From Atractiella rhizophila (lineage: Eukaryota), in contig MU271214.1 of NCBI GenBank assembly GCA_021432655.1, forward strand, positions 61,544 through 125,543: a stretch of 64,000 nucleotides of DNA, written 5' to 3'. Shown here piece by piece: positions 10,772-43,195 of this stretch; the stretch's first letter is position 1; every line of letters begins with the position of its first letter. The notes beneath the pieces were generated by a model, which saw nothing but the letters and a program-made list of their open reading frames with translations, searched no databases and was not told the DNA's origin. A program made the translations under genes and the position numbers.

Positions 10772-11424
10772 AGATTACGCTCAAAATATGAAGTGAGCGA
10801 CAGTGCTGAACGATCAGATTGCTCGAAGTACCGAGAAACTTGAAGTGGATGGTGAACGTTGAAGATCCTAGGTACTATAGTTTGACTTGTTACTTTTGTT
10901 TCGTCCAGTGTCCTATAATTACAGAATCCCTGTGATGGTTTATTTTGTTTTTCTCCAGCTCAATCCGGCTCGGTTATGTCAACCTCGTTTGTTTTTCAGT
11001 CTCTTACTTCGCAGCATACCCATTTCAATATCTGCCAATCAACACGCTGGACGCAAACAACAATAAACAGTTAAAGATTTTCATCAGCAATGCGTTTTTT
11101 TTATTCCTACCCTGACACAGTCTTCCCCTTTAACTTAAAATGGTTGCAACTTCCAAGTTCAAGGGGGAAGAAGCTTCTTCAGCGATTCCGATAGGAACGC
11201 CCTCTCTTCTTCCGGATAATACCATTGTGCCAGTGCACCGTTTCCTCCTTCAATTTGGCCAGAGGAGGTCAGTCATAGAAGCTCGAAGGAAGATCCTAGA
11301 TGGTCCTGGAAAGAGCGGGATAAAACCCTGCTAGTGGATGACCTACCATCTAGGTTAGTACCTCTCTTTCTTCAGTGTTCGTATCATGTAGGGAATGTTT
11401 TCCACTATGCTGAAGCCGAAAATA

Positions 11425-12740
11425 CACTGCCAATTCAGTTTCAGGTGGTGGTCAGTTGAATCTAAAAACTGTAACGAGACAATCACAACTGTATTGTTCT
11501 GATCGTGAACTGGATTCAGCTGTCCAGCCATATCTGAAAGCTGAAGTCATTTGAATTGCGGCTGCTTGCAGCCGTCTGCGACTGGTCGCATCTGAATGCG
11601 TGTCCGCGTGCAAATGACGCGCGTCTAACTCCAGAAGATGTTCATCTGCCTTGCAGCTGCATCCCCCATCTTCTCACGGCTGCAATGACATCTGCGTTCA
11701 TCTGTAAGCATCTGTATGCGGTCAGTAGTTCGACAACAGGTTTAAAAAAAGAAATGCTCTTTCTGCCGCTTGTGCTTCCTGCCGTTGTCTCCACATTTCC
11801 CACTTCCCACATTATTTCTGATTTTTTTTGGATGATGTTAAGCTTGTTGTCAGTGGGGATCAAACCTGAGGAGTCTAGCAAGGGTGTCAGTGTACATACC
11901 ATTAAATTATTGAGATGCTTACTAGATTTCATGTTTTCTAACCTCCTTTTGCATCAAGTGTTTCTACAACATCATGACTTCACTTTCTCAAAAACGTCTA
12001 AGTCATTCCACTGCTGACAAGACCATGTTAGGCTTATTCCACATGTCAGCCACTCCTCTCAAGCCGATCGTCACGGTCCTGGGCGCCCCGTTTGAGGATC
12101 CAGTCTCTCTGTCAACATGCTCTCCATACTTACTGATCCCCTCCCAACTGCTCAAGATTGTGGAACTTCCCAACCATCTTTGTCCTGTTGTGTAGAATTG
12201 CATTTTGATGGCATTTCAAAGAAAAGTTATTTAGCTTACAATGTAGCCCAAATGACTACAAGCCCAGAGGATGGGAACAGAAGGAAAAGAAGAAACTTTC
12301 ATATTTAGAGGTAAAGGACAGACACATGCAGGCGGATATACAATGTGTTCTCAGCTAAATGCAGAAGTGCGATGCAAATGCATGTACCTGTCTGGCCAGA
12401 CGGTTATAGCTTGGTGCGCCTGGATACGAATGAGTGGGGCAGCTGAGGGTGGGATGTCAGCTGACTGCTTACAGCTGTCGCCAGGTGCTTTCGGACAGAG
12501 GGAGAGCTGAGGACAGGTACTAATCATATGATTTCAGGTGTTAGCAGGTAAGTCCAGCTGACATTACGACTGGATGAAGGGTGCATTCAGACACAAGCAT
12601 TCGTCTACATCTGAGTCCAGATGCGACCTCATCTTTCTCCAGTTGCTCATACAACTGATTCGCCTGTCCAGCCATATCTGAGTTCTGCATTCAGAATTTG
12701 CGGGGCACGGCTGGATTCAGTTAAACTTCGATTGGCAGTG
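11425..12740. mobile_element. Non-autonomous CACTG-ended DNA transposon (CACTA/EnSpm-like), 1316 bp
   Basis: Terminal inverted repeats CACTGCCAAT (11425) / ATTGGCAGTG (12731-12740) flanked by TA on both sides. Exact 18-nt subterminal repeat CTGTCCAGCCATATCTGA at 11520 and 12664, plus repeated CTGGATTCAG. Confidence 0.75.
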
Positions 12741-13199
12741 TAGTGGTGCTACATTTAAATCATCACTAGTTATCCCCTGGAACCTTGCAGGGCTGGTCCA
12801 GTGCACGCCTACTCACTCAAGGCACTAGCACTCAAAACGGTGCTGGTTTAGAGATGGTTTAGGGCCGATTTTTGGCTCCGCAGCAGTGCCAGTTTTGTGC
12901 ATCTGGTGCGCTGTTAGTGTTGCAGCTAGTGCTCATGTGTAAATCGAATATTCAGTGCCTTTAGTGTACTGTCAGTGCAATGTAGTGCCAATCTAGCGTG
13001 TAAAACAGAGCACGGTTAGTGCAGCTTTAGCGAGGGTCCAGTCGCACTCCATTTACGGCTCAGTTATACAGGAGCATAATGGAAATGGATTGATTCCACC
13101 ACAGTCTTTACCCCTGATCTACACAGTGATACTCCCATCGCCATCTCCCCTGTTCCCTCCCTAATCCCTCTTTCTCCTCAAATACCGAATGTGCCATAT

Positions 13200-15899
13200 T
13201 ATCGTGGTCTTAACAGTCGAAGCCCCTCTCGTGTTCCTGCGCCGTTACCTCCACTCCCTCCGCCACTTCCACTAGTACTAGCAACACGTTCCTGATCGTC
13301 CTGGCCCCCTTTGAGTAGTCGAAGAAGCTCCAATATCCTTTTGTCGATGGAATTAAATTTCATAATCATAACTCCTACGTCGTACTCCTATTCTCTGTTG
13401 AGAAACTAGCTGGGAAATACAGACTACTCACTTGGTTTTGTAACATTTTCTTCCAGTGCTTCGCATTCCAATGGTTCTCTTTTGCCATTTTTTTGGCCTC
13501 AACTAGCTGTGCCATCATATCCTGCTTGTTGAGCAATGGTCTAAGTTTCTCAACATCCTCCCTCAGTGACACAACTTCCTCTGGAAGCAGAGCATCCGAG
13601 TTCTCTTCGTTCTTCTTAGACTTTCCTCTCCTCTTCTCGTTTGCACCAATCCCATTCACCTGTCCCACCTGACCCAGCTTGAGTGGCATGGGCCAGATGT
13701 CTGATGGTGGTGCAATATGTCCAGGTGATGGACCTTCGCTACAGGGGGGAGGTAGGAAGTGAGAGATCTTGCTGCATGGCAACATAGGAGCGATACCGCC
13801 TTGCAGAGGTGGAGGAGGAAGATGATCGTCGGTAGGAGGAGGAATAGGAACGTCATGACCCTGTTGCCACGTTAGAATGAAAGCATCGCCTTGTTCAGGA
13901 GGAGGCACAACATTGTTGATTCACAGAGAAGGTGGAGGGAGGTAATGAAGAGTAGAACGGAGTGGGCACTGTGGAAATCGATGTTTTTCGGCTTTGAGGT
14001 TTTTCTCCTTTGACGTGGTAGACACAGGATCTGTATGCTGCTGTGACCTTTCTAACAATGCTTTCAAATACTCACCTGCCACCATAATGTTCTTAAAATC
14101 TTTGGCTGAACGCACGTCCTAATCCAGCATGACAACCCTGTTGAAAGGAAAAAGCGAGACTCATAGAAATGGCATTGCTACCACCGCCCTCCAGCCAAGC
14201 CTCAGCCAGACTCTCAGCCAGCCTAAAGTTGAGAAGCAACGATGTCACATCCATCGAATCCGGATATGCCTCCTTCCATCGCTTGCACAATCGTTGTGCA
14301 ATCTTCGCACCCCTCACTACAGCTTGAAGCAGCTCCCCAATCGCTTCCCGTGAACCCACATTCTTCCACTTCCTCAAGCAGAACAGTGTCTCCTCACCGA
14401 GGCTGTTATCGCCCAGCATATCCCCTCGAGGATTGTTTCGTAAGTCTTCAGAGGTATAATCGTCCTCGTCTGCATCGATTGCGAGGTTGATATCACATTC
14501 CGACGACATTATGGTGATGAGAAGACGTTTTGTTGCGGATTGTGCAAGCATTTCGCTGTCGATAGCACGAGAATGGGCGTGGCAGAGAGGTAGGATGCCA
14601 TCTTCAATAAATGCGGCCAGTGCTTTGAGGTTGATGAGACAATTATTGTCAGCAACCATTTCCTTGAGCTCATCTATTGTCCTGTTAGTTTCAAATAGCA
14701 GAGAATGGCATGTCAAACAAAATACAGACCAATTGATCCCTTAATGGTGTCAGGCATAGAGCTGGAGTTATTCTGCCTCTTGAGCAACTTGTTCTGGCTG
14801 GCCCTGATCCCATGAAGTGGGTCATTCGGGAGTTTCGCCTATATGCTGAGCAATTAGTATCTAGTCATTTAGAAGGCCAGAAATGCACCATTGGTCTATC
14901 ATTCTTCCTCTTCATAGTCCTCTCCACCACTCTCACTGACGTAGCAATGGAGCCACAGCCTTCAAGCCCTGATCCTCTTTGGCCCAATTTGGTCCAAGGA
15001 GAGAGATGCTCACCATGCTCTGCATTCACACTCTCCACCCTATTTCTCTTCTCCGTCGGCATGACAGATCTGTTGATACTGGCCTTCCTTTTTATTCCCC
15101 TCTTAACAATCTGGCCTCCATCCTCATCACGCTCGCCATCACATTTATAGGCACTCCCTCTTGTATTCCTTAGCACTACGGTAACGAAGATACGTGACAT
15201 CCTGTTGTTCTTCCCAAGGCAAAGAACTGAGCTGTAATCTGCCTCGAGTTTGCGCAGGATGTTCGGAAGATGGACGGTTTTGCAGAGGCCCGTCTGGTTC
15301 TTGATCGACTTCGTAGTGTCCAGGTAGGTTTTTGAGTAGAGGGTGGCATCGTTTTGGATGACATCAGCAACCACACTGGACAACTGAGTTGCTCCAATAA
15401 CGCTATCATCAACTTCATCGAAGACAAGCTGATTTAGCACCTGGACGGGATCAAGGAGGTTGTTCTGTACGCCACTTCTCATTGAGGCGGCTGCTTGTGT
15501 ACGTTCCCAAACGATCCCAGGGTCTTCAGCATCTTCTTTGCTGATAATTGGACGGTATGGTTTCACTGGCCATTTGATCCAATCTTCTCTGGAAGATTCA
15601 GAGCCTGTTTCAGGGGCCAGGGCCTTCGCTACCATACCTCCCACACGCTGTTTCGACGTTGAATCCACCGGGGGAAGAACCTTTTTCACCTTCTCAAGCT
15701 CCAACCTCAATCGATCCACCTCTTCATCCTTCTCCATGTAAAACTTCTTCCACTTATCTTTGTCCATCCGCTCTTTCTCCAAAGAACTCTCTAGCTCAAA
15801 CACCTTTGATTCCAGTCCCTGCACATAAGGATTTGATGAAAAATCGCGCCGAGTAGCAATTTGGATGTGGATGGGAAAGGATGGGTCCTCTCGCGACAT
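13200..15899 (-). CDS. Unknown multi-exon coiled-coil/proline-rich ORF(s), probably accessory gene(s) of the adjacent CACTA-type element
   Basis: Long same-strand ORFs 14865-15899, 14093-14716 and 13375-13908 with coiled-coil-like stretches (LESKVFELESSLEKERMDK). Divergent from the transposase relic. No family recognised. Confidence 0.4.
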
Positions 15900-16298: not shown

Positions 16299-19200
16299 GT
16301 GCCAGAAAGAAGAAAGAAGAGGAGGAAGGGGTGCATGCTGCAACACGTGCTGCTCTACGTGTCGATGCCATCTCGACTTCAGGCATCTCCTTCTCCTTCA
16401 AGAAAAGCACATGACGCAATCCCCTACGTCCTCGAAGTGTTTCCTACACCTCTAAGGTCCACATCAAGCTCCAACAACCTAATCGCACATTGCTAGTATC
16501 TGATTTTCAGCCTTATCAGCTAAACGCAACCAACATTTCTCCTTTTGAGAATGATGTTGATCAAGGATGTGCTCCACAAGAAGAAGGTGATACTGAGATG
16601 AGAGAGATGATGGAGATGGGTATAGAGAGCTGAGGGAAGATGATATAGAGCCTCTTATGGTGAGTCCTGAGGAAGAGGAGGAGGCGTACTACAATCCAAA
16701 TCCTGACAATGCTGCTCATCCTGCTGGAGCTGGAAAGCTCACATATGCCACACCACTATTGTGAGTAATCTAATAGCAGAAAGGAGATGCGCTGATATTT
16801 GTACATTGAATTACAGCGAGGTTCGCGATATCCTCATGCCACTCTTCGATGATGGTTCCAATGACCTTCCAACTCTTCCTCCAACTTATCACGATGAAGT
16901 CCTCAAGCTTACTGACAAACAACAGCTTATGCTGGACGAATTCCGAGTCTGGCACCGAGGCAATGAGAAGGAAGCAAGTTATGAAGGTCACTATCAGAGT
17001 TGGACTTTGCGCGGGGTCATGACATGCATACCCTTCCAGAGGCGAAGAAGATGCTTGCTGAGCTCAGTAGGCTGGATGGAGAATGGTTGCCAATGTGTAG
17101 AGCTTCATGCAGCACCTATGTGGGGAAGTATGAGGGGTTAGAGTGGTAATTCTTTCAGATGAATGACATGACATGAAGAGCTTACACAACGTGCAGGTGC
17201 CCTCATTCTCGGAAGATCAATGGACTGGTGGTACCCTGCAATAGACCACACTATTCTCTTTCCTTTGGGTGCTCTGGGATCCCAGGAAATGCATCCGCAG
17301 AAAAAAGAAATACCGAAAAGAGCTTTCTCTTCTGCAACCCAATCCATCGAATCAAGGCTATGTTCCGGGCACCACAAACAGCCAGGATGATGGGAGATTT
17401 TGGGAGGAAGCTGGGAGAGGCTCTGGCAAAAGCAGAGTATCTCATCGACAAGCTGAAGAGGGGCTACACGTACAATGACTTCCATCACGGTACTGCAGTC
17501 TAAGCGCTGGCTGAGGATGACATTGACTTCTTGGAGGATGAACGAGAATGTGTCTTCATCACATCAACAGACGATGCAGCCATCCATGCTACTCGCGACT
17601 CTAATATGTGGTTTGTCATTCTCTCGTTCCTTGGCTTCGACATGCACATCAGAGCAAAGCGCTGTCATACCTTCTTTACACTGGGCGTCCCCAGTCCCAA
17701 CAATGCAGTCGACATTCAATCATTCTTTCTCCCATTCTATAAAACGATGGTGAAGTTGAGTGGAGGGTTATGGATGTGGGACGCATCTTCTCAGAAGTGG
17801 TTTGTTTGGAAAGGTTGGCTTATCAACAAGTTGGGTAAGTTATCTTACGCTTTCTTTTCGGTACTCTAATGTTGGCACAGGTGACATGCTTGGTTCCGCG
17901 AAGGCCAACGGCTGCACAGGCCATCAGGGGAAGTGCGGTTGTCGTTTTTGCAAGCTTATCGGTCAACTCCTAGGTTAGCATTACTACTATCCATGTATAT
18001 CACTTCCCCAAGACAACAGTACTCTCCCCAGCTATCGTCCGGCCACATATGACCCGCTCAATCTTCCAATTGACACCACGACCGAGTACACTCAAACAGC
18101 AAAGGATCTTGCACTCGCAATAACGCAAAAAGCACGAGCAGAGATGGCACGAGACAGTGGTGTCATTTCCATCACGCCAGCTTCTGGATTCAAGACTTTC
18201 CATGATCCATGGACATTTTTTGCTGGGGATCTTGCTCACCTCCACTGGAAGAATGACGCTGAACTCATTTTCGACTCAACCATGGGGATCAACAAGCAGG
18301 GATCTCTTCCTGAGCCGTGTCACCGGACACTGCAGGTACGAGAGGAGTTCGGACACATGGTTGAGCGCTCGAAGGTAGATATTCCGTACGACTTCTCTCA
18401 AGCAGGTCCATGGAACACCAACCGATTCCGAAACAGCCAGTATAAGATGCACGAGTGGTGGGAGGTTTTCGATTGGCTCCTGAGTCCCTGCCTATTCCTT
18501 CTAGGATTCCCTTTAGATATCATTCACCTTCTTGATTTGTTTATCTGCGGCTGCTGACTGGCTTGGCAACATGAAATTAGCGAGCAGGAGCAGCTGGAGA
18601 TTAAGCAACTTTTTGCATCTTTCATCTTTCGTTACAGGCTGGGAGAGACTATACGTTCACGGTGATTCCACCTGCCTTAGTCGTATGCCTATGTGCATCC
18701 ACCACCTCTTGCACATTGCCGACTGGATCCTCTGGTGGGGGCCTGGGATCCTCTACTCGCAGTTCCCAATGGAGGGAATGATTGGATTCCTCAAGAAACA
18801 AATCAATCAGGACAACAGGTATCAAGAGAACCTGCTTAACCAAGCCCTGCTGTTGGAGCAAATGAACAGTATCTACCATAAGCCCCGTCCCATCTCTTAT
18901 AGGTGTTNNNNNNNNNNNNNNNNNNNNNNNNNNNNNNNNNNNNNNNNNNNNNNNNNNNNNNNNNNNNNNNNNNNNNNNNNNNNNNNNNNNNNNNNNNNNN
19001 NNNNNNNNNNNNNNNNNNNNNNNNNNNNNNNNNNNNNNNNNNNNNNNNNNNNNNNNNNNNNNNNNNNNNNNNNNNNNNNNNNNNNNNNNNNNNNNNNNNN
19101 NNNNNNNNNNNNNNNNNNNNNNNNNNNNNNNNNNNNNNNNNNNNNNNNNNNNNNNNNNNNNNNNNNNNNNNNNNNNNNNNNNNNNNNNNNNNNNNNNNNN

Positions 19201-19714
19201 NNNNNNNNNNNNNNNNNNNNNNNNNNNNNNNNNNNNNNNNNNNNNNNNNNNNNNGAAGCACGAAAGGCATGCAGGTATGAGGTAAGTGTTAGCTCAATGT
19301 GTCTGGCTATCCTTTCTGATTGAACAGGGAATCGATGATGCAGGAGATATTTTCTATGGTGAGGCAGTGGTCTACATATGGGTTCCAGAGACTTTCTTCG
19401 ACCCCGAAGCAAATCCAGCCAACGACAAACTCTCCGTACTCACTCAGCTTTTCAGCAAATGCTGTAGCCTTTTCAGGAGCGAAATACTCTGCCAGTGGAC
19501 CGACGAATTCCGACTTGTACCCCTCGATCTCATGAAGCGCTCGATCGGGGTTATTCAAGCAGAAGACGGCGAGGGCGGAACCTTTGTCTGGGTTCTTCAC
19601 TGTCACCACTCTGATGCGCCTATCAGCCCAGTCCCTGACCCTGAGGCAGAAAATGCTCTTATTGAAGGAGATGCCAGCCAGAGTGACGAGATGTATCTCC
19701 CAGACCCTGTTTAG
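16299..19714 (+). pseudogene. CACTA/Tnp2-type transposase, frameshifted, spans assembly gap
   Basis: PMCRASCSTYVGKY, NPIHRIKAMFR, YNDFHHG, GDMLGSAKANGCTGHQGKCGCRFC and HHLLHIADWILWWGP...SQFPMEGMIG motifs spread across broken frames. Confidence 0.75.
18908..19254. other. Assembly gap (run of N)
   Basis: Continuous N from 18908 to 19254. Confidence 1.
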
Positions 19715-20355
19715 CACTACAGATGCTATGTTGATGCCTTTTTTGCAGAGGGCGCTTTGCCACGGTATAGTCTTCTAGAAATTTAAACTTATTACTCCAG
19801 TTCACTATTTCAATTCCTAACTTGGATTTTGATTGTTGGAAATATGTGATATATTCTAACAGAGATTCTGGAAGCTAGTTTACATATATTGTGCACAGAG
19901 CAGTCGAAAATTTGTACCTTCCCTCAGTATAATCAACCCTCCATATGTGATTTTGTCCTTTACCATTTCCTCCCATGATAAGTGCTTTGAGATTAAGTGG
20001 CGCCTCGAGCCTATGCGTTAAGTGTCCCCTATGTGCTTGTCAATATTTCAATGGCCCTCACGCAGCTTCATGCACACTTCGCTCAAGCAAATTGAAAACA
20101 CAACACCAGACTGCTCTAATACACCAGACTAACCAAGCACCAAATACACTAACACCTCCCTACCCCAGCGCTAACTCGGCCCTGCAGTATGTCAATGAGG
20201 GCTTCCAAGCACCAGGCTCTTGAACTGTTGAATGCTCTGGAATTTGAACTCTTCCTCCTTGGCACTGTTCAGAAATGGTTTAATGGTCACAATGACGGCT
20301 GAAGTAAACTCCTTCGATTTACAGAATCGACATCCTATTTAGTTCTGGAGATGTA

Positions 20356-20471: not shown

Positions 20472-23400
20472 AGAGCAGGTTGGGGAAAAATTTTCGAAAA
20501 CACTGTTGAATGACCGTTGACAAGTTAATATCTCTGCCCCCATCGCTGGCTCCAACCCCTTTTCCTGAGCAGGAAACCAAATCAAACGCATCCAGTGAGA
20601 CCCTGGATCTCATCTTGGACCACGTGAAAGAGAAGGCGGCGACCGCGACAATGGCGCAAAACTTGATGAGTCTTTGGAGTGGTAGAAAGCTGGAGGCACG
20701 GAACCGGAAATCTTGGTATGAAGAGTTTATTCGCTTGGCGGTTGGGAGTGGTTTTGGGGAGGTTGTTCTTGAGGAAGGGAGTGGAGGTACACCTAAACCA
20801 GAACTTCCTACTTTCGCGATCGGCGGTTTGAAGGAGAATGCAACCTCGTTTACCTCTAAGATGACCACCTATCAGAAATGGATCTCAAATGATGCGGCAG
20901 CCAATACTATCCGGAAGGCTCTCGTGATGGAGAGTGATTGAGATTCGATGGCGAAACTTGGGACATGTCGTGAGAGGATCAATGTCCTGAAGACGCAATA
21001 TGGGGCTCCACAGAAGCAATCGGAAATATTCGACCTCCTCAATTTCGTCAATATGAGGCAAGTTGCGGGAGAAGACCAGAAGGAATGGTGAATAAGTGGC
21101 GAACCAAGAAACGAGCTATTAGCGATGCTAGGTCCGAAGACAAAGTCCCGAATTCATTCTTCCTTGACCTCCTGAAGGCTCAATCAATCCCGCCATGGAC
21201 GGGGTTGATGGAGAAGGTAGAGAATGATCCGAAATGGGCGAGGGATTACACCAGTCCAACGTTAAGGGATAAGAAGTTTGAGTCCATGTTAGACGAAATC
21301 CTGGATTTCTGTATCAAGCAGTGGGACATGGACTTAAAGAGGATCGAGATGGGACAACCTCCTACCAACGGGACATACCTCGATTATCCGACTCACGAAT
21401 CCTCCAGCGCATATTCCGTCCAGAGCCCACGGACACCTACTGCTAACAGGACGCATAACTTCTTTCCAGGCACGCCGACAAGGAGAGGTTCAACGACAAT
21501 GACGCCACCTCAATGTGTATTCCGTCCGAAGTCACAGCAGCTTATGCCCACACTAAGACCATACCGAAACGTTCCCCTATCGTCCGAGAGGATGATATAT
21601 GCGCTACCTCTGAGGAATGGAGGAAATCCAACACGTGTTGATCAATTGCAAGAGATTCCTGGAAGAGTTTGGAATGGTGGATTTACAGCTGGCGGAAAGC
21701 TGATGTTGAGTGGGAGATGTCATGTCTGTTTTCAGGAGGGCATCGTGGAGAAACATGTAGACTGAAGGGGGCGGATGTCAACACCCGAATGAGAGCAAGA
21801 GCGGCAGAAGTAGGGAGATACTATACGGGTATCACTCAATGGAACGTCAGTGGCCTGGCTGTCTCTCGATTGAATACGACGGCGGCCGATGACGGAACAA
21901 AGAACATTGTGGGAGCCGTTAACATGCACATCGATGACGGGAGAGCTAATGGAACTGGAGATGGATCAGTCGTGTTCGGACCTAACGACCTTGCTTGGGT
22001 TCCTGCCTATGTACAGGAGGCGTTTGAACAGCGGGGACGACACCTTCCGGACAATCCTGCTGCATTATCCACCTTCCCGATCTATGTCCCTGGTTATAGC
22101 AAAGACAATCCTCTCCCTCCCGAACATCCGGTCTTCAACCAAGAATGCAGATATTCGTCTGAAGGAATAGAATATGAAGAATATGACAGAGATGTTATGG
22201 GAGGCGCTCTTGGGGTACAGAACTGGGAGATGCCTTCGGGAATGGATGGGGTGTGATGCGTATGGAACGGAGCATTTGCTGGGAAGGCAAGAGATGATGG
22301 ACCCATTCTGGATTTGAAGTTCCGAGTAATCGATTGGCATGAGGGCATTCTTCCACCGCGAACTGCGCTGGCAACATTGAAGATGATACATGACACGGGT
22401 GCCACATATCACATGGTTTCCTCCTTCAACTTACTTCACAATGTTCAAGAAATAGAAATAGAGGAACCGGTCGTCCTGCGAGGAGTCTTTGATAGTTCGG
22501 GTACCACGAAGATTGTTGGAGAAATCCATGCAGTCATGGAGAACATGGATGGAACTAGGTTCATTGTCGTCTTCGAAGATGTCCTCTATCTACCACAACT
22601 GGGGATCAATCTTATCTCTGCCATGCAGCTTATACGGAATGGGATGTGATTCACGAACAACCGCGAAACGATATACTATGGGATCGACGATGGGAGATCG
22701 ATAGGATTTGCGGTTATTGGGGAAAAGAACGTCACCGTAAAGGCAAGTTACATCCCATCTCACACAACGTTCGACGCTCATGTCTGCTTTTCGTCTACGT
22801 CCTCGATTGCGAAATCAGTTGAATTGCATACCCTGCATGAACGACTGGGACATCTGAGTTTTGGAAAGATAAAGGATATGTTGCAAAAGGGGAAACTTGG
22901 AAATGTGACGTTAACGAGATCGAAATCAAATGAAGGGATTCCAAAGTGCTTGACGTGTGCGATGTCTAAGTCGACTACAAAGACGAACAGGCCGAAGCAG
23001 ATGTCGGAGAGCGTTCTGGGATCAGCCGATTTGAACCGGAACATGGAGTTAAAATTAAGAAGATACGAACCGATAGGGAAGCAGAGTACATGGGAATGAC
23101 TCTGGCGACCTTTACGAGGACAGGACAGAAGGAATTCAGCATGAGACATCGATTGCCTATAAACACAACCGTATGGGCATGATGGAGCGTCCGTGGTTGA
23201 CATTGCTGAACATGACCAGAGCGTTATTACTACAGAGCGGTTTTCCTGTCAGTTTCTGGGGGGACGATATGGCAACATCAGTTTATCTATACTTGAGGGT
23301 ACCACATAAGGCACTCACGGATGCCAGGAGCCCATACGAGGCGTTATACGGAAATTTACCGTCCATGGATCACCTTGTTGCTTTTGGGACATTGGGGGTT

Positions 23401-24749
23401 GCTACCATCCCAAAGGAGCGTCAAGAATCGAAGCTTCAACCTAGGGGAAGGGAAGGATACATGCTGGGATATTGTGAAGACGCGGCAGGATGGAGATTGT
23501 GGGATGCAGAGAAGAGGGTAGTATTTGAATCGGCTGATGTCGAATGGTTCGAAGGGGTCTTCTATCGAGAAAGGAAGGGAACGAGACGTGAGGAGGCTAG
23601 AGCGGCTTTAGAGGCTGGGATAGAAGAATTCTGGGGGAGGAATTGGGGTGTCCATGATTTCGTGCACGGTATGGGGGCCTTCCGGAAGACCAGACTGAGG
23701 TAGCACCTGTGGGGGACAGAATACGTGAGGAACTCGACGATACGGCGGGGGATATGGGACGCGCAACCACACCTAGACCAGATGTTCGCCGATCATCTAG
23801 GAAGACCCTGCGACGAGATTATAAGAAGATGAACTCGGGTATACAGGACTTACCAAGTGCATATGTCGTCCTGAGGCCTGGGATCAGAGAACAGGAGTCG
23901 AAGAAAGTGCGGGAGGCAAGGACGGTCGTTGAAAATCTGGTCCAGGCATCAGCGATTTTTGATGAGGCACAAACAGACGGGAATGTTGGAGGTGGGGCAT
24001 TCGCGGTGGACGGAAATTGGGACGGGAATGACGATACACCTACGTTTTCGAAGGCAATGATGGGCGAAGAAAGGGAGGGGTGGACTGGAGCATGCGGAGG
24101 GGAGTGGGGACAAATCACAGGGATGGGGGTTTTGGGTCCGCTACAGCCGAAACCGGACAGAGTCGTTCCTATTCCACTGAAGTGGGTGTTAAGCAAGAAG
24201 AGGAAGTTGGGGGGCGAATTTCTGAAATATAAGGCGCGACTAGTTGCCCTTGGAAATAAGCAGGTGGAGGGTCGAGATTTTACGGAAACCTACGCTCCGA
24301 CGGTACGCATGTCCACCATCAGAGTTGTCCTTGCGCTTGCCGCCATAAACGGATGGACCCTGGGACAGTTCGACGTTGGAAATGCATTCTTACATGGAGA
24401 ATTAGAGGAAGAGATATATGTCCAGCAGCCACCGGGCCTTGTTGATCCCAAACATCCTGACTGGGTTTACCGAGTAAAGAAGAGTCTCTACGGGTTGCGA
24501 CAAGTGGGGAAGAGTTGGAATGAAGAATACAGCACGATGATGAAGGAGGAGGGATTCGTGAAATCACAGGCTGATCACGGAATGTACGTTAGACAGGATC
24601 ATAGGGGACTGGTAATAGTGCTCTTACACGTGGATGATGGACTCGTTGCATCGACGTCGACGGATTTGCGAGACAGCTTGATGAATAAAATGGTGGTGGT
24701 CTTCAAGAGAGTTACACACGGCGAAGTGGGAGAGTACCTTGGGATGCAG
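20356..24749 (+). mobile_element. Ty1/Copia LTR retrotransposon, degenerate, 3' truncated within RT
   Basis: Copia domain order: gag with frameshifted CHVCFQEG/HRGETC knuckle, protease IHDTGATYHM, LHERLGHLS..CLTC, partly deleted integrase (LLNMTRALL..FWG), then RT KARLVALGNKQVEGRDFTETYAP...KSLYGLRQ...LHVDDGL. Several in-frame stops. No RNase H or 3' LTR. Confidence 0.92.
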
Positions 24750-24774
24750 GATCCTATTTCTTTCAGAGACAGGG

Positions 24775-25128
24775 TGTTAGGACAAACAAACACTATGTGC
24801 GGTCGCCGATGGGTGATGCGTCTGTAGTGGAGATAAACCTAAGAGCATGATATGATATGAAGACTAACCTGTAGTGGAGATAAACCTAAGAGAATACTCT
24901 AAGGTCACCTCCACTACTCTCTGATTCATATATACAAGCGGAATAACACTGCCACAGAGCGTAGAGGGGAGCAGATGAAACATGTAAGAGGAATAAAAGG
25001 GGAAGTGACAGTGGGATTACACGGAGTTAATAAGAGGAGGATAGGCACAATTGGGCTAAGTGGTGATGTAGGTGCAAATGGGCGAACGAGCGAACAGGCG
25101 CCGATTTGCGTAAGATGCAAACCTGACA
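24775..25128. repeat. Solo LTR (family A), 354 bp, 5-bp TSD CAGGG
   Basis: TGTTAGG...CCTGACA termini; CAGGG at 24770-24774 and 25129-25133. Homologous in inverted orientation to 56427-56787. Confidence 0.88.
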
Positions 25129-26830: not shown

Positions 26831-29800
26831 TTATCTGAGCGCACCAACATCCTCCTCAATGTAATCTGCACACTCTAAATCCACACTCTTTGACGAAACG
26901 AGGGATGGAACATGGGCCCAAGGAGTGCGGAATTTTGTTCCACAATGGTCTCCTTGGATGGCAGACAGCCTGTCTCCCCTCTGCAACACTCTGAGGTCAT
27001 CCTCGCAAGAGAAAGGGACCTTCTCTCTGTCATGAATACATTGACCTTGAGTCTGTTGATCTTCCACTCCACCATAGAGCAGCTTTGCGTCCTCGAACGC
27101 CCTCAGGGCATCCTCCAAGCGACCAAGCACAATGTTGATTTCCCCAATGCCGCAAATGCAGTAGGATTGACCACGTTGATGTCCCAATTCTGCATAAAGC
27201 ACCTTTGCCCCTTCAAACGCCTTCAGCGCATTCTCCTTCCGACCACGTTGAAACTCGATCTCCCCAACGTTGCGGAGGCAGTGGGCTAGACCTTGTCGAT
27301 CTCCCACTTCCCCATACAACAGCTTCGCTTCCTCAAATGCCCTCAGGGCATCCTCCAAGCAACCACCATCGTTGTCGATTTCCCCAATGCTGAAAATGCA
27401 GTGGGCTCGACCTTGTCGATCTCCCGTAACACCATAGAGTGTGGCCGCCTCCTTCAATGCTTTTATGGCATCCTCATTCCGGCCACATCGAAAGTGGGTC
27501 CTCCCGACGCTGAAGACGCAATTGGCTTGACCTTGTAGATCTTGCAATTCCTTGAACACCACGTTTGCCTCTTCAAATTTCTTCAGGGCATCCTCATTTT
27601 GTCCACACCAGAAATCCATCTCCCCGATGTTGCGAATGCAGTGGGCTTGACCCCGTCGATCTCCCAATTCCACATAAAGCACCTTTGCCTCTTCAAACGC
27701 CTTCAGCGCATTTTCCTTCCGACCACATTGAAAATCGATCTCCCCAACGTTGCGGAGGCAGTGGGCGAGACCTTGTCGATCTCCCACTTCCCCATACAAC
27801 AGCTTCGCTTCCTCAAACGCCCTCAGCGCGTCGCCGTTCCGGCCACTTCGAAAATCGATCTCCCCGAAGTTGCGGATGCAGTGGGCTTGACCCCGCATAT
27901 CGCCCACTTTGTCATAAAGTGCTTTCGCTTCCTGGAATGCCATTAGCGCATCCTTGTTCCGCCCGTCTCGAAAATCAATCTCTCCGATGCGCCGAATGCA
28001 GCGAGCCTGACCCTGTCGATCTCCCTTGCTTTGATAGAGCATCCTCACCTTATGGAATGTCATCAGTGCATCGTTATTGGCGCCTTGGTTGCGATAACAG
28101 TAGCCAAGCGACTCGGTCACTGAACAATGTAGTCTTGATAAAGTGAGCTGCTGATCTTGCGCTGTCTCCACAACACGTACCGCCTGTTGGAACAGCGGGG
28201 TAGAAAGATAGTGTTTCAGATGTAGGAACCTTGACATGTTGCTCAAATGGTGAACGATTGCTAAAGGGTCTTGTAGGTATTGCATGCTCGCTACCAGGAT
28301 GTGTTCGAGATTAGGGTATTGTTCACGGAACAACGAGAGCGCATCCTTGTCATTTTTGTACTGTTCAATAATTTTCAAACTTTTCTGAATGATATGGTTG
28401 GCAAGAGGTAAGAGCGACCAAGCGACATTCCTAAAAAATGGTGGTTTGGAAAGAGAGACAAGGAGGTTGAGATATTCGCGAATAGGAGCGAGCATACGGA
28501 GACGGTTTGGAGTATCTTTGATGTTGTCGGCAAGGGCAATCTTTGAAATTGCACCAATAACTTTGTAAGTATCCTGAGATTCATAACAGCTTGAAATGAG
28601 CACCAACAAATCCTCATAGGATAGACCGTCAGGTGCCCATGAAAGCAGAGCAAGCACGAAAGTCCCCTGTTCTCCATGTTTTTTGAGAGCCGGGGAGTTG
28701 AGAGAGAATGAGATAGATGTTTGGAGAGTGATTGTGTCCTCACACTCGTCGTCAGAGAAAATTTTTGTCTTTTTCTTCTTCCACTCATCTTCCAATTGTT
28801 CGAGTGTCGAGGTGGGGTCTTCTTCAGCACGTAAAGCGAACAGCTTGATTGACAGAGCATGGAAGTCCATCTCTTTAACTAGGCGTTGAACCAAGGGTCC
28901 CGAGAAATCGGCTTCTCTCTGATACGAGTTTTCGAAGAGTGCGAGCGCGCCTTCTTTTGGCAAAGTTCCAACTGGGACCTTGATAAACTTTACAGGTCTG
29001 TCTGCGCTCACGTCTAAAGGTTCTACTTGATCGCCACGATGGGCCACGACGAGCACTGATCCTACCGAGTTGTTCGAAAGAAGATTGCGAAAAAAAAATT
29101 GTTTCTGGCCGCTGTCAGCACGCAAGGGAGTTTCAAAGTTATCCAAAACGAGAAGGCATTTTTGATTTCGGAAATAGTCCGCCACGATCTGGAGAGAAGG
29201 TTGGCGAGATTGCGGCAGTGTGAAAATGTCGTTACAAATATGGTCGCATAGCGTAGCAAAGCTATCAAAGTTGTCACACCGGACCCAGAAGCGGAACTCT
29301 TCTTTAGTGCCTCCGTTCAGATCTGTAAAGGACTGCTCGATCTCTCTCGAGTGCAGGGTGTGGAGTGCAACTGTCGATTTTCCGTTTCCAGCTCCACCCA
29401 CAATTGCTACATGATGTCCTTCAAGTATAGCAGCTCTGGCACTTTTGACCTCCTGTTCTCGCCCAAAGCAAGCACCTGGTGGCGGCAATGGCAACCTTCG
29501 ACGAACTGCATTCCGTTCGCCGCACACTACGAGAACATCAGCATGTTATCCACTTATGAGGCAAGAGATTATACCTTGCACGAGAAATTCAGCAGCTTTA
29601 CGCGCTTCATGACCCATTGCTTCCATATAAGCTTTCGTACAGCCTACGACATCCTCCGTTCGCTCCCACTCCTCCCACTTGATGCCACCCATCGTGTTGA
29701 CTGAAAAGCGATGATAGCGATGTCCCAGACCTCCAAGCTGCATCTTCATCTTCAACTGATCCGCGATGTGGGCACAATCTTCTATAATCGCCTTCACAGC

Positions 29801-30784
29801 TAGTTCAATCTCACCTGAGGTCTGGCCCCATTTGACAGCCGGAGCGATCCCCGACCCCAGAGAGACGAGACAGGCGACTTGGCTACCTTCTCCCCAAATG
29901 TGCTTTGACTCGTCAATAGCTATTGCTGCTGGGTTATTGTTCCCAACGGCAATATATTTCGATTTGTCGATGACAATAGGAGGAAAGAATTGAGGAGCAG
30001 AGGAAGTCGCTCTTGCTGCTTCCAACACCGTACATTGAGCAGCAGAATGCACTGCACTGAGGCCGTCATACGTGCGCATCTCTGTTGAAACAACTGCATT
30101 TGCTTCATACCTTGACACAACAAAACTTCTGCATCTATCTTTGATTGCGGCATCCTTCATGGGAAGTTGGGAGGACGATACAGATGATGGAGCTTGTCGT
30201 GTAATGATCTTGTGGAAGACATCTTCGAGCCTCTCTGCAGAGTACCGGTAGCCCTCTTTCGAAGGTGGAGCTTCGTCAGAAAAGACGTTCTGCACGATCT
30301 CCTTGTACGCACTGATGGACTGTCGAACGGTCATCCCCAACCGTCCGAGCATGAGGGCAATCCACCCTCCTGTGGAAGTGCCGCAGATGAGATCAAATAC
30401 ATCACACGGCCGGATATCTTCTCCCTCAGGAACTTGAAGAATGTCTCCAACTTGGAGCATGATAGCTTCGAGCATGTAAAGGGTAGAGAGGGTGCAGATG
30501 CCCCCGTTGTCGATGGCGAGGATTCGGACACCTTGTTTGTTCGTCTTCTTGACATTCTCCGGGACTTGGAAAATTTTAACAGTTTGAACGTCGGAGGAGA
30601 CGCGGGATGGAAAGGCTGTTAGAGTGGGAGGTCTGGAGGTAATTGGCGTTGTGGTACGTGATAAGAGAACTGCTTCGCGTTCTCCCGATGAAATTTCTTG
30701 CAATTTGCTGCTCAGCATGTCGTTTTCGAACAAATTCTCCGCGTCTTCATGATAAGGATCGTTGGAATAGGTTGAGGTATCCAT
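26831..30784 (-). CDS. NLR-like receptor: patatin-like phospholipase domain + NB-ARC-type STAND NTPase + TPR repeats; exons 30784-29575 and 29526-26831 (~1301 aa)
   Basis: Patatin motifs ILAIDNGG, FDLICGTSTGG, ARATSSAPQFF; P-loop GGAGNGKS; Walker B LLVLDNFE; eight 40-aa TPR units. A 48-nt intron GTATAA...GCTGAT...GTAG (29574-29527) joins the two long ORFs in frame (CAA G|TG TGC). Confidence 0.92.
27065..28024 (-). repeat. Tandem array of 8 x 120-nt TPR-coding repeats with high internal conservation
   Basis: Units start at 28024, 27904, 27784, 27664, 27544, 27424, 27304 and 27184. Consensus GDRQGQAHCIRNIGEIDFRCGRNEDALKAFEEAKLLYGEV. Confidence 0.95.
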
Positions 30785-31899
30785 GTTGACAAAACAAGAT
30801 AAATGGTATAGACGATAATGGGAGGTGGTCTGATTTGTTGAACGCTAGACGACACCCAAGAAATGCAAATCAGATGTCTGCAGTGGATGCGAGAAAGCAA
30901 GTAGGAAACAAGTGAAATTTGAAATTGTGCTAATTGATATGGGAAGAGTAATAATCCGATCCAGAGGAACATCCGTACGTACGATGGCATGGAAGATGCC
31001 AGAGATATCTTGAATGGTTGGTGATTTGTCAATCACAAGAACATTGATAGGAAAATCAAGGAAGCAATACACAACGCCCAGTGCTTCGCGGTCCGAAGGC
31101 GGCGAAGGAGCTCTTAAAGGGTAATGGGTAATGCAGATGTAATTGGGGATGGCGGGGGAACAGAAAATCATCACTCGAAGCTCTACCCGGCACAACGTTG
31201 TCAACTTTTAGCCTCAGCCAAGCTAAACCGTCGACAGTACCAGTTTTCAGATTTGATACTCACAAGAACTTTCAGCTGTACCAATCCTGAAATACTTAGC
31301 GAAACCACCGATTTCAAGCAACACACGATCAAAATCGTACCTTAACAGCCGAATGTCTGCTTTATCTGAACCTGTAGAAGAGGGCTATGTCCGTTCGGTT
31401 GGTGGGATTCCAGAAGCAGATTGATCACTGTTTGTCCCACATCCTGAACATACATTGCCCGCCGCTCCCGACAGTAGAAATGGAGGCATTTCTCATGCTT
31501 AATTTTCTGACATATCCGATGACTTATGCAGTCCTAAGTATCTATTTCATTGCTTCATGACTTGGTCAAGTCAAGATTCAGGTTCCATGAACCCTTTTTT
31601 GATAGCAGAAGATTGCTCCACATCCACCTCCAAATTCCACCTTCAGCCTCCCAACATCTGCTCAGTCATCGTGCCGACACCACAACGAAACTCCAAAATC
31701 TTCTTCGCAGAGGCACGCTGCCAGTCCTTCCCTCTCTCCTTCTCTAGCTCCACATTCACCGTCGGACTCTCCTTTCCTCTCTCTCGCTCAGTCATCTCTA
31801 CCTCTCTCCCTCCGTCGTTCCAGCCTCCCGATAATGTTAAGTGTAGAGCAGAAGCAAAATGGAAACATCGACACTAAAGCAGGTGAGAACACCGCCCTC

Positions 31900-33382: not shown

Positions 33383-33458
33383 AAAACAATGCACCGCGAA
33401 AACCTTCCCTCCTCTCCTGCCCGGGGCTTCATAAACGCACCGAATTGTGTACCTGATT
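33383..33458 (+). repeat. 76-nt dispersed repeat, copy 1 (copy 2 at 43814-43890)
   Basis: AAAACAATGCACCGCGAAAACCTTCCCTCCTCTCCTGCCCGGGGCTTCATAAACGCACCGAATTGTGTACCTGATT recurs with a few substitutions and one indel at 43814-43890. Confidence 0.92.
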
Positions 33459-36400
33459 AGGCATACGAGTAGGCTGCCAGAGCCCGTTTGACGTGAAAAA
33501 TGCCGCTTTCTCCCTATCTCTCCTTTTTAAGACCACCTGCCAATACCCGGAAGCAAGGTCGGGGGAGTATGGTGACTGAGAGGGCTTGAGAATACCTTGG
33601 TCGAGCATGTCGCGTACTTGCTTGTCGATCTCCCGTTGTTTCATTGGGTTGGCACGATGGGCTCTGGCTGAGGGTGGTCGCTTCCCGTCTTCGATTTCGA
33701 TTCCAAACTCCACCCCTCTTGCTGTTCCCAATTCCTCCAATCCTTTCGCAAATTGTCCACCTCTTTCCAACAAGAACTCCTTCAACCGCAGGCCCTCACT
33801 CTCCGTTATCCCATCTCCCAAGTCCAACCCCTCTAAATCGTCCTCCGTAATGGAGTAACACTCGTCAGCCGTTTTCGAAGATGAAAGGAGTTGTGAGGCT
33901 GAGGGTGCATTGAAAACTTGAAAGTCCTTAAGGTTGGCAAGGTGTCCTACGATGGTGCCTTTTGGAAGTCGTACCTCGTCCCCCCGCACGTTGATGAAAC
34001 TGAAATATTGATCAGAATGAGATTGTGGGTTGAAGTTGGTGTCCTGAAAAGATGGACAGAAGAGGCGAAATCAGTTTGCGATTGGAAATAAAGGTCGTTG
34101 TGAGAGAGAGTGGGGTAGAAAATGAGTTTAACATCGGTTGCTGAATGGGGAGGCAGGATGGCGTCGAGTTTGAGTCGTACTTCTTTCCTGGCTCCCGTCA
34201 GTGGTTCCTGGTCAACAGGGGGTAGGGGAGAGGGGGATGGCGGTCTGGGAGTGGATGTACCCTTCTTGGGCTTCATTCTCGGATTACCTACTCTACACTT
34301 CACTTGTTCAGTAGACATTTCACGAGACTTGGAAGGAGGAGGGATTGGCATGGAGGAGAGGCTAAAGGGTACAAAAGCATCATGACCTTGCTTCCAGAAA
34401 CGCAAAGAATGATTTCTGAAGTTGATAATAACTCCATACTGTTCCATCACCTCAGTTCCGATCAAGCAACTGAAGTGATTGCCGTCCAGGACGTGGCAAT
34501 CCACGGCGAACTCCTCCCCCATTATCTTGACCTCCAACGTCGTCACTCCTACCACTGACGCAGGGCCACCAGCCATATTCGAAGCACCCATCGGCCTCTC
34601 CAGCTCCCTAATTTCCAGTCCCTTCTCTTCACAATAGCCCCGGGTTACCACTGACTTGGAGCAGCCAGTATCCATACACAACATTTCCACTTTTCTGTTA
34701 ATGATGGCATGGAACATCACGATCCCTCGAAGGGTCATTCGTAGGGCCGGAACTTGGAGAAGTCGAAGGGGCGGCGAGAAGGGAGTGGAGGAGGAAGGTC
34801 AAAAGTCGCATCTGGAAACGAATTGTATGGAGGAAAATCGGAGTGTCGAGGGGTGAGGAAAATACTGTTGATTTGGGCAGTTTGGTGGTGAGGAACCGGG
34901 GGCGGATCTAGGAGGTCATGTGGTGGTTTGACATCTTGAGAGATGTCGCCACAAAAGAGGGGGTTGGTGAGAAGGATAGTTTCTTGTTTTGAAGTTGCTG
35001 AAAGTGTCGGGGAGGAGGGAGGTTTGGGCATGAAATAGCAATCCTCCTCTTCTGTCACCGAGTGGGTTGTTGATGCGAACGAAAGAGGGCAGTAGGGATT
35101 ATAAAGTCTTCTGTGGTTAGTAACGGAAGTAGAGGGAAAGGATTGGGGAAACAAGGCAGACGGAAGAGAAGAAAGAGGTCGTGAGGAGAACATTATGCTT
35201 CCCGAACAGGCTCCTCCTCCTATCAGGTGTTGGCTTCCCCCGCCAACAAGAGCTCATCCATGGAGCGGGTCCTCCACTCATTTCCAACATAATACCCATA
35301 CCCAATTCCTTCCCCCCTGTTGTCCTCACTTCTTCCCAACATTTCAAACTCCTGCACGAATTCCTCCTCCTCCCATTCTTCTTCTCCCTTCCCTCCACCA
35401 TAAGTGAACGCCCCAACGTCTCCTCTTTGTGTATTCCCAGCGGTGATGGCTCGTCCAGCCTCATTCCTTGCCCTCAACTCCCTTTCAGGATGCATTAGAG
35501 GGCCAGGTAGGCTTCCTAGTGGAAGGTTGTTTGGTGGGGTTGCTGGAGTATTGGTCGGACCACGAGAAGGATAAGGCGATGCAGGAGTTATGGGTTGAAT
35601 GGGAGAGGCGAAATTAGGACGGGAACGGGGATTGAAAGGAGACGGGTACGGAGAGACTGAGTCTGGAAACGGGTTGCTTATTCTAGGAGAGAACGGGAGG
35701 AGAGTGGAGGTCTTCTTTGTTGAGGTTCTGCCGGAGGAGTGGTCGTATCGGAGTAGTTGGAGACGGGAGGTCGCAAGCGGGGAGTGGGGTAGTAGAGTTC
35801 GTTCCTTCAGTTGAAAGCGGTATTTCGGTCTGTTATCTCATCAAGCATCCCTAACCCCGCAGCTCTACCTTGCTCGTTGGGTTCAGCCTTGAACGCCACA
35901 CCCTTCTTACAAAGAGCAGAACGTCCGCTTGGCACACCATAGAGCGAGGTGCGGTAGCTCTCACTTACCTCTGCCCTAGCCAAATCCAACATCACCAACT
36001 CCTCTTTTACTTCCCTCCAAGATAGCTCCGCCTCCATACCCATCCTCCTGCCTTCTTCACTCTTCCCATACCACATCTTCGCAATCCACTCCTTGAAATC
36101 CTCCACCTCGATCATCCGTAATACCTCCCGAATCCGATGCTTGTCCCCCAAGATTTGTCCCCATCTACACCACTGTTCCACTTCTTGAAGGAACTCTGCC
36201 ATCGTCTCCCCCACATGATCCTTATCCTTAAACCTCCTCTCTGATATTTTCGCCAACGCCTTTGACGCCCTTGCCGCATGTGCAAGGTAGTTCGTAAACC
36301 TCGAACACAGGGTATCCATAAGGGTCTCATACGATTCTTGGACGCCTTCCGCCACATCCTGAAGGACTCGGCCAGCCAATGACGTTGGTTTGATACACTC

Positions 36401-42004: not shown

Positions 42005-43195
42005 ATGCCTCCTTACCAGGACCTCGTCCAACAGGCACAACAATCGGCTTATCGTCGACTACTCGCTTATGATCCCCAGCTCTTGTTTCCAAAGGTCAAA
42101 GCGCAAGATAGGATTTTACAGTGGAAACCGGAGCAACACATCCAAGCGGTCTACAGCCACCCTCGACTTCAAAACCTGGTTGCCCTCGCGTCTGCAGCTT
42201 CCCTGGACGAATCGACGCGTAAATCATACGGTTCAGGATTAGCAAAGTACCTAGAATACTGCGAGAAGATGAATTTGCCTCGAAACGAAATATTCCCGGC
42301 GTCGAAGGGCGTGATTTTAGGTTTTGGTTTATGGACGTGCTTAAAGGAAGATGGAGGAGTGGAAGGAGAAGGGCCTAAGAAGTTGGTTACACCGCAGACA
42401 GCACAGAAGTACGTCACTGCACTTCATTCGTGGCATACACATCATGGACTGCCATTCGCACTTTCCTCAAAGGAGGATTGGGATTATTTTCATTACCTTA
42501 TGCGCGGCGCAAAGAAGTTGCGAGGAGAAGAGCTCAAGGCTCCTCGCCCCCCAGTTACGTTACACATGCTTCGCGCCTTGCACACTGGGTTAGACTTTCG
42601 CAACTCATTCGACTCCTGTTGTTAGGCGGTTGCCACATCTACCTTTTTTGGTTTGATGAGATTGGGAGAAGCTACCGTGCCCAGCAAACCGGAGTATACG
42701 CGACACCCAGAGAAATACGTCCCTCTTCGTAACGCGACTTGGAATTCCGACAATTCAAGGGTTGGGTTCCTGAAGCTATCCCTTCCGCACGATAAGACGA
42801 AGAATCGTGTTTTGCGACCTGGAGAGAACCCAAATGTTTTCCTGCCACGACAAGCAGACCTGAAATTGTGTCCTGTGGAAGCCTTAGCCCACCACCGATC
42901 GATTACCCCGTTGCAACCAGACAATTTTCTGTTTTCATACATTGACCGCAAGACGCTTCAGATGCAGCCAATGACGAGACAAGCCTTTCTGAAACGCGTC
43001 AACGAAATTTGGGAAGCCGCAGGTTTGGAACGTGATGTATCAGGTCACAGCTTTCGAATTGGAGGAGCCTCCTTTTTCCTGGGACAAGGGATCTCTCCCC
43101 TCACCGTACAATGGGCAGGCAGGTGGAAATCACTGGCATTCACCTTTTATATTCGAGCTTATGAGGACATCATTCCTAAGTCGTTGGCAATTTGA
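42005..43195 (+). pseudogene. Tyrosine recombinase ORF with one internal stop
   Basis: STRKSYGSGLAKYLEYC N-terminal domain; TAG at 42623-42625 (likely from TGG); R...HxxR...W...Y catalytic set in the downstream same-frame ORF 42653-43195. Confidence 0.9.

Follow-up and report, generated by a model that had tools for sequence, protein, structure and literature searches.

The stretch of DNA analysed here, which we call the window, comprises 64,000 nucleotides of contig MU271214.1 from the root endophyte Atractiella rhizophila (assembly GCA_021432655.1, positions 61,544 to 125,543 of the forward strand). Its minus strand carries a gene of the NOD-like receptor (NLR) type, the spliced product of which is 1300 amino acids (aa) long and joins a patatin-like domain to a P-loop STAND NTPase and an array of TPR repeats. 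The patatin-like domain has kept the serine of the catalytic Ser-Asp dyad and lost the aspartate. The features of the gene are listed below in the coordinates of the window.

26831..30784, minus strand: whole coding region, ATG at 30784, stop 26833..26831, one intron (translation)
29575..30784, minus strand: exon 1, 403 aa; disordered N-terminal tail (residues 1-68), then the patatin-like domain
29527..29574, minus strand: intron of 48 nt, GT..AG, with a CTGAT branch-like site (sequence and a contig of run X3)
26831..29526, minus strand: exon 2; linker, P-loop NOD, helical region, TPR array and stop (Pfam and translation)
28865..29467, minus strand: P-loop STAND NTPase core (sub-threshold Pfam matches and conservation)
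29398..29372, minus strand: Walker A, GGAGNGKST (sequence)
29143..29138, minus strand: ..LVLDN of Walker B, LLVLDN (sequence)
27054..28025, minus strand: TPR array, ~7-8 tandem units of 120 nt (40 aa) (Pfam and repeat analysis)

The gene is made up of two stop-to-stop frames in the same phase, 30844..29546 (432 aa) followed by 29545..26831 (904 aa). The only in-frame stop, TAA at 29548..29546, lies inside the 48-nt intron, and removal of the intron preserves the frame. An open frame of 1300 codons is not explicable by chance. The initial annotation had described an open frame of about 1300 codons and placed the gene at 29546..30784; the codon number is correct once the intron has been spliced out, although the unspliced frame is interrupted by the TAA, and the box was drawn too short, its end at 29546 being the last base of the intronic stop when the gene in fact extends to 26831. 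A tblastn search found no second copy of the gene in the window.

Evidence for splicing was provided by contigs of sequencing run X3. One of these (record 21, 428 nt, 0 other letters) joins position 29526 straight to 29575, skipping exactly 48 nt, and continues unbroken to 29203, so that the reading frame of the patatin domain extends into the NTPase; positions 30073-30844 and some portions of exon 2 are covered by further contigs of this run. This suggests a spliced transcript, a hint rather than proof as the kind of run X3 is unrecorded, and the gene is probably expressed. The patatin, NOD and TPR parts would thus belong to a single transcript, exon 1 and exon 2 being bridged in frame by the contig.

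The deposited A. rhizophila protein of this gene has 432 aa and is 100% identical over residues 1-403. It departs from our frame after CGERNAV (29475-29526) and implies a 31-nt intron, which is contradicted by record 21 of X3, unbroken over 29203-29526. The deposited model is therefore corrected from 432 aa to 1300 aa. Similar out-of-frame tails occur in several paralogue models, so that NLR genes seem to have been truncated systematically in the genome annotation, and NLRs are apparently under-annotated in the genome of this fungus.

The exon 2 product has the architecture of a fungal NLR or STAND protein, a central P-loop NOD with Walker A and Walker B being followed by C-terminal superstructure-forming repeats. 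The NTPase had initially been labelled NB-ARC, a label that did not survive the Pfam comparison: the exon 2 protein had no match to NB-ARC (PF00931) at E up to 0.01, whereas nSTAND1 reached 25.7 bits against a cut-off of 27.1, AAA_22, NACHT and AAA_16 being likewise sub-threshold. Among 26 aligned NOD homologues, nSTAND1 was matched by 22, NB-ARC by 6 and NACHT by 5, and the domain is best called nSTAND1-like. The Walker residues G46, G48, K49, D128 and N129 are invariant across these 26 sequences. Most of the proteins homologous to residues 1-430 of exon 2 combine nSTAND1 with TPRs and come from Basidiomycota or from unnamed environmental records. For the repeats, TPR_12 was matched in four stretches of exon 2 (E 1.1e-30, Pfam), and tandem-repeat analysis gave a period of 120 with 6-7 copies and 67-69% matches. 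Evidently, the locus holds an intact, probably expressed member of the NLR-type (STAND) receptor family. A BAG domain precedes the same NOD-TPR chassis in another protein of A. rhizophila, P0363, which has 1235 aa and is 47% identical in the NOD; this is the usual domain shuffling among fungal NLRs.

Fold and motifs of the patatin-like domain

The N-terminal domain matches Pfam Patatin (PF01734) with E 1.1e-15 and 58.8 bits (cut-off 27.7) over profile positions 2-191 of 191. An AlphaFold2 model of the patatin part, built with 88 aligned sequences, has a predicted local distance difference test score (pLDDT) of 83 and a predicted template modelling score (pTM) of 0.82; pLDDT falls below 50 at residues 5-53 and exceeds 90 across most of the core. 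With this model, Foldseek retrieved bacterial CapV (8zr9_A, E 7.5e-16, template modelling scores 0.64/0.74), CapE/CapV filaments including 9ion_B, and potato patatin (1oxw_A, E 3.7e-14), and placed iPLA2-beta and PlpD near the model as well (E from 7.5e-16 to 1e-9, probability 1.00). The patatin alpha/beta fold is thereby predicted with high confidence to be retained. The elements of the active-site region are the following.

29576..30529, minus strand: patatin-like domain, residues 86-403 (Pfam PF01734, structure model, Foldseek)
30511..30494, minus strand: DNGGIC of the Gly-rich (oxyanion) loop DNGGIC(T), residues 92-98; DGGGxRG in relatives
30382..30368, minus strand: nucleophile elbow GTSTG, residues 135-139, with the Ser137 codon at 30376..30374
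29959..29930, minus strand: Asp loop KYIAVGNNNP, residues 276-285, Ala279 at the place of the dyad Asp, 2 residues short
30080..30082, minus strand: Glu235 codon, in strand 229-237 of the model; candidate substitute for the lost Asp

The catalytic motif set of patatin domains is described, in the part of the source available to us, as a Gly-rich region, GXSXG and DGA/G (PMC12871566). Only GXSXG is found intact here, as GTSTG with Ser137, followed by a clade-specific Trp141. The Gly-rich motif (DGGGxRG, GxGxxG) is altered by G93N, R97C and G98T, the central G94 and G95 being retained, and in place of DG[A/G] there is Ala279 or a gap in the Asp column of a loop shortened by two residues. The state of this loop was read from four comparisons: HMMER against solved CapV chains, MAFFT with 120 longer homologues, BLASTP against Podospora PLP-1, and a hidden Markov model of canonical relatives. 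All four agree on Ala279 or a gap at the dyad Asp and on the missing two residues; they fit "DG deleted" and "D to A plus two residues deleted" alike. In the model, Ala279 directly follows strand 275-278, where relatives bear the Asp, D273 of the IVIDKS segment lies in the turn preceding that strand, and H358 stands at the start of the last strand.

The motifs first read from the minus strand, namely GTSTG intact, DNGGIC in place of DGGGxR, and KYIAVGNNNP, are all confirmed, and the alignment to Pfam Patatin and to paralogues that the initial annotation had proposed finds the dyad Asp and the GxGxxG/Arg loop missing and GTSTG retained. From these motifs we infer that canonical Ser-Asp phospholipase activity has been lost.

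An error of assembly or reading, with the Asp-Gly codons really present, would undo this conclusion. The DNA contig of run X1 (record 7) covers 29855-29992 and with it the Asp loop, showing neither a difference nor an indel, and none of the four runs lists an indel; X1 and X2 may be the window's own source sample, and the X1 contig is accordingly not independent support. The same short loop also recurs in 18 other gene models elsewhere in the genome. We found nothing that speaks for such an artefact and regard its probability as practically nil.

Origin and conservation of the Asp-less loop

Thirty-four A. rhizophila gene models were examined, that of the window included; 23 of them show the Asp-loop region and 11 fall short of it. 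The short Asp-less loop, Y[VI][ALT]xGNNNP with close variants, is present in 19 of the 23. Only two, P0272 and P0130, have the canonical YVDGG, together with DGGGVRG or DSGGLRG in the Gly-rich loop. The remaining two are P0133, with Ala in a full-length Asp loop and no deletion, and P0128, with a different short loop; P0133 hints that a D-to-A substitution may have preceded the deletion. DNGG is found in the Gly-rich loop of ~20 models, and the elbow reads GTSTGGW in 16 and GASTGGW in 2, Ser137 being retained in every clade member that shows the region. In ten paralogue models the patatin domain is likewise followed by this linker and P-loop. Chance does not account for a motif state that recurs in 19 paralogue models.

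For the tree, 54 rows were used (the first 20 of alignment A1 and every second of the remaining 68), none of which fell below a threshold of 170 filled columns. The tree was computed with IQ-TREE in quick mode under LG+G4, the Asp-loop columns being excluded, and is unrooted. All 18 A. rhizophila rows form one clade (Shimodaira-Hasegawa-like approximate likelihood ratio test, SH-aLRT, 99). Within it the 14 short-loop rows form one subclade (SH-aLRT 97), which P0128 joins next (96), and P0272, P0130 and P0133 stand outside. Measured from the subclade base, the paths to the tips amount to ~0.3-0.9 changes per column. As the Asp is present in almost all members of the wider family, it is economical to assume that the Asp was lost once and that expansion followed, and since the short-loop state is found in 19 of the 23 models and in one clade, sister to the DGG paralogues, the loss appears to be old and inherited. 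We conclude from the tree that the short-loop state arose once, evidently in an ancestor shared by 14 or more paralogues; it is seen in 19 models.

No relative was found in metagenome contigs with the protein as query, and with the clade alignment as query 51 loci were obtained, all with at most 45% identity in the best segment and none in the clade. Within the data searched, the receptor family is known only from Atractiella rhizophila.

Conservation along the domain was measured as mean pairwise identity among seven full-length paralogues.

Residues 1-68, N-terminal tail: mean identity 0.44
Residues 86-160, Gly-rich loop and elbow: mean identity 0.86, the highest of all segments
Residues 161-216: mean identity 0.64
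Residues 217-320: mean identity 0.74
Residues 321-403: mean identity 0.69

In the clade, the commonest residue has a mean frequency of 0.91 at 87 canonically conserved columns against 0.65 at 134 variable ones. The altered positions are themselves conserved: N93 is found in 10/10, C97 in 9/10 and T98 in 9/10 clade sequences, where G, R and G occupy 91-100% of 69 canonical rows, and G94 and G95 are nearly invariant. N93, C97, T98, W141 and H358 are fixed at 90-100% in the clade, and F99, E235, H355 and W370 are likewise clade-specific and fixed. These frequencies establish that the altered state of the patatin-like domain has been maintained, evidently under purifying selection, and the pattern is that of a domain which would still be functioning, its pocket rebuilt rather than abandoned.

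The locus could also be viewed as a decaying member of a birth-and-death NLR family that is on its way to a pseudogene. Such decay would agree with the transposon-rich surroundings (copia at 22.2-24.8 kb, gypsy at 33.4-34.8 and 52.4-56 kb), with the broken or partial appearance of many paralogue models, and with the truncation of the deposited model at 432 aa. It is contradicted by the open 1300-codon frame of the spliced gene, by the intact Walker A, Walker B and TPR array, by the X3 contig, which lacks precisely the intron and reads on into the NOD without a change of frame, and by an Asp loss common to a whole conserved clade. We consider decay very improbable, and the young pseudogene which had been named as the condition refuting a maintained gene can be set aside on the same grounds.

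Catalytic or non-catalytic output

Dyad states were classified in 327 patatin domains from outside Atractiella, a set picked by similarity to the query and hence not an unbiased sample. Both Ser and Asp are present in 289; 15 lack the Ser, 20 lack both and 3 lack the Asp only. Roughly one in nine of these related fungal domains (38/327) thus misses dyad residues, and 35 of the 38 have no Ser. Many of the deviant domains sit in proteins of 1000-1700 aa. Judged by these motifs, dyad loss is recurrent among fungal patatin domains. In the same set, G93, R/K97 and G98 are all retained in 263/274 Ser-bearing but 15/31 Ser-less non-Atractiella domains, and R/K97 alone in 271/274 and 19/31, respectively. 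By these counts the Atractiella loop resembles that of plainly non-hydrolytic relatives, whereas its retained Ser does not.

Dyad-less domains of other fungi, for instance P0017 and P0091 of Mycena latifolia, P0024 of Cronartium and P0137 of Rhizoctonia solani, which has two such domains, share with the Atractiella protein an N-terminal patatin fold in a long TPR- or NOD-bearing protein. They differ in that the Ser is mostly the residue lost, Ser kept with Asp lost occurring in only 3 of the 327, and in that none of them has the two-residue deletion or the DNGGICT loop. The literature searched, outside which most subscription papers lie, contains no account that we could find of fungal NLRs with dyad-less patatin domains, a silence that carries little weight, and a word search of the parts available of NLR reviews and a fungal NLR domain survey gave no mention of them. 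As a side observation, tandem patatin-like domains that both lack the nucleophile Ser were seen in P0137 (1484 aa), P0150 and P0183.

The reading that we favour, tentatively and with a little less than even confidence, is that the domain is a maintained, remodelled and probably non-hydrolytic module which serves in binding or signalling. It is suggested by the altered motifs and short loop in a retained fold, by the single origin, conservation and re-fixed residues of the clade, by the resemblance of the loop to that of Ser-less relatives among which dyad loss recurs, and by an intact gene with conserved Walker A and B. In the mechanism we propose, the TPR array would sense a cue, the NTPase would then oligomerise and bring the patatin-like domains together, and the assembled domain may act without hydrolysis as a lipid- or ligand-binding, membrane-directed signalling module. 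The maintained pseudo-enzyme NLR of the initial annotation finds support to the extent that an inherited and conserved clade without the dyad does exist; its NB-ARC type and its kinship to PLP-1 (see below) do not stand.

Several observations weigh against a non-hydrolytic domain. Ser137 is retained throughout the clade, whereas 35 of the 38 other dyad-less domains have lost it; a need for the Ser apparently persists, and this points to residual or altered catalysis. The central loop glycines G94 and G95 are retained too, and the branch on which the Asp was lost also gained an acid specific to the clade, Glu235. In addition, expression rests on one contig from a run of unrecorded kind, and many of the paralogue models, being fragmentary, may represent pseudogenes.

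These observations lead to a rival explanation, in which the domain would still work as a serine hydrolase or as an acyl-transferase. Ser137 and the glycines of the oxyanion loop would remain in use, the general base would have been relocated and the substrate changed, the loss of Arg97 having shifted the preference away from phospholipids. Relocated catalytic acids are known among alpha/beta hydrolases. The base might be Glu235 or, less likely, D273, H355, H358 or an acid from a neighbouring protomer in an oligomer. Apart from the retained serine and glycines, the loop and elbow as the most conserved segment speak for such an enzyme, and H355 and H358 are clade-specific. Glu235 is found in 12/13 clade rows and 0/72 canonical rows, and the full-length-loop sisters P0272, P0130 and P0133 have Y, N and F in this column. 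Nevertheless, Glu235 and the loss of Asp coincide in one evolutionary event only, and a Glu in column 235 is not striking, given how much this column varies across the wider family (L 141, R 79, I 27, H 26). Moreover, the three independent domains that have kept Ser and lost Asp (P0172, P0151 and P0318) have I, L and R at this column, and R/K97, absent from the Atractiella loop, is almost never lost in Ser-bearing relatives (3/274). D273, the Asp in IVIDKS that the initial annotation had offered as a possible substitute, was rejected as a compensating acid: it is also carried by the canonical sister paralogues and so predates the Asp loss. A relocated base is in our estimate unlikely, though it is the main rival.

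In another scenario the protein would be a sensor NLR with a degenerated execution domain, in need of a partner whose patatin domain is active, as sensor to a helper, adaptor, decoy or dominant-negative form; homotypic pairing would join the dead domain to canonical paralogues, for example P0272 and P0130. Canonical paralogues (DGGGVRG/YVDGG and DSGGLRG/YVDGG) are indeed encoded in the same genome as a sister group, and for CapV and CapE, the nearest relatives among solved structures, the entry titles speak of dimers, tetramers and filaments. The ratio of 19 altered to 2 canonical models is reminiscent of plant sensor/helper networks. In the NRC network the N-terminal MADA motif of sensor CC-NLRs has degenerated, as reported in the available part of PMC6944444, so that many altered receptors stand beside few canonical ones; the analogy is a functional one only, domain and kingdom being unrelated, and the Atractiella domain is strongly conserved instead of degenerate. 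'Use it or lose it' predicts decay of the pocket, yet the pocket is the most conserved part and new residues have been fixed in it. Neither linkage to a canonical paralogue nor any other patatin gene was found within the 64-kb window, and P0272 and P0130 are short deposited models in a genome whose models are often truncated. The dominant-negative role put forward initially fits poorly with 19 Asp-less forms against 2 canonical ones; a sensor/helper relation may exist. All in all, we consider the sensor scenario rather improbable.

Comparison with known systems also bears on the non-hydrolytic reading. PLP-1 of Neurospora crassa and PaPLP1 of Podospora, patatin-NB-ARC-TPR allorecognition receptors to which the gene had been likened, resemble it in that a single polypeptide carries the patatin fold at its N-terminus, the P-loop NOD in its centre and TPRs at its C-terminus. 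PLP-1 is the patatin NLR that has been studied. PLP-1 cell death requires an active patatin domain (PMC12881547) and depends on the P-loop of the NB-ARC domain too (reviews PMC12881547 and PMC10197012), as far as the available parts of these sources go. The Atractiella protein differs by its nSTAND1-like NOD and by the missing dyad Asp and GxGxxG/Arg loop. Podospora PLP-1 aligned with the patatin part alone (E 3e-21, 26% identity), no BLAST similarity being found in the NOD/TPR part, and the gene is not an orthologue of PLP-1. No SNARE gene, such as the linked sec-9 partner of the PLP-1/SEC-9 system, was found among the 45 open reading frames (ORFs) scanned in the window.

CapV and CapE of the bacterial cyclic-oligonucleotide-based antiphage signalling system (CBASS) provide the closest solved structures and the closest Protein Data Bank (PDB) sequences, and they are patatin-fold immune effectors that assemble into oligomers; they are, however, stand-alone, nucleotide-activated bacterial enzymes with an intact Ser-Asp dyad and no fused NTPase. 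Potato patatin Pat17 (1OXW) and the PNPLA proteins have the same fold, the full-length Pfam match and GxSxG in common with the Atractiella domain, which misses two of their three defining motifs, the Gly-rich loop and DGA/G.

A wider proposition, which we consider possible but hold with reserve, is that fungal NLRs have evolved a dyad-independent patatin-fold execution or signalling domain, either as a lipid-binding pseudo-enzyme or as the sensor half beside canonical paralogues, the Atractiella clade being the clearest case of a wider, undescribed phenomenon. A conserved and expanded clade which has the fold and the serine but not the aspartate and the anion-binding arginine leaves two possibilities: patatin domains of fungal immune receptors can signal without canonical hydrolysis, or the active site has been rebuilt. 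In both cases the range of output domains known from NLRs would become wider, and a simple test system would be at hand in Ser137, Glu235 and the two canonical paralogues, P0272 and P0130.

Sequencing depth and genomic surroundings

In two DNA runs, contig depth rises from ~90-130 to 900-13,700 over 27211-27347 and 27485-27895, which are parts of the TPR array, and the contigs over these stretches are mostly only 90-95% alike. High depth together with such divergence indicates that TPR units and parts of the patatin exon are multi-copy in the genome.

The NLR gene is flanked by retrotransposon remains. A copia-type element at 22257-24827 (plus strand) has Pol_BBD, gag_pre-integrs, SH3_retrovirus and RVT_2; gypsy-type fragments lie at 33429-34798 (minus strand; aspartyl protease) and 52373-55980 (plus strand; gag, RVT_1, RNase H and integrase). 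An ORF at 42626-43195 (plus strand) resembles the tyrosine-recombinase family (Phage_integrase), just below the Pfam cut-off. The stretch 18001-20000 has a G+C content of 0.39 compared with ~0.48 elsewhere and many overlapping ORFs on both strands, which suggests low-complexity or repeat sequence. About 16 kb from the NLR gene, an ordinary housekeeping-type ORF at 9480-10454 (plus strand) matches Cyclin (PF08613, E 2.8e-30).

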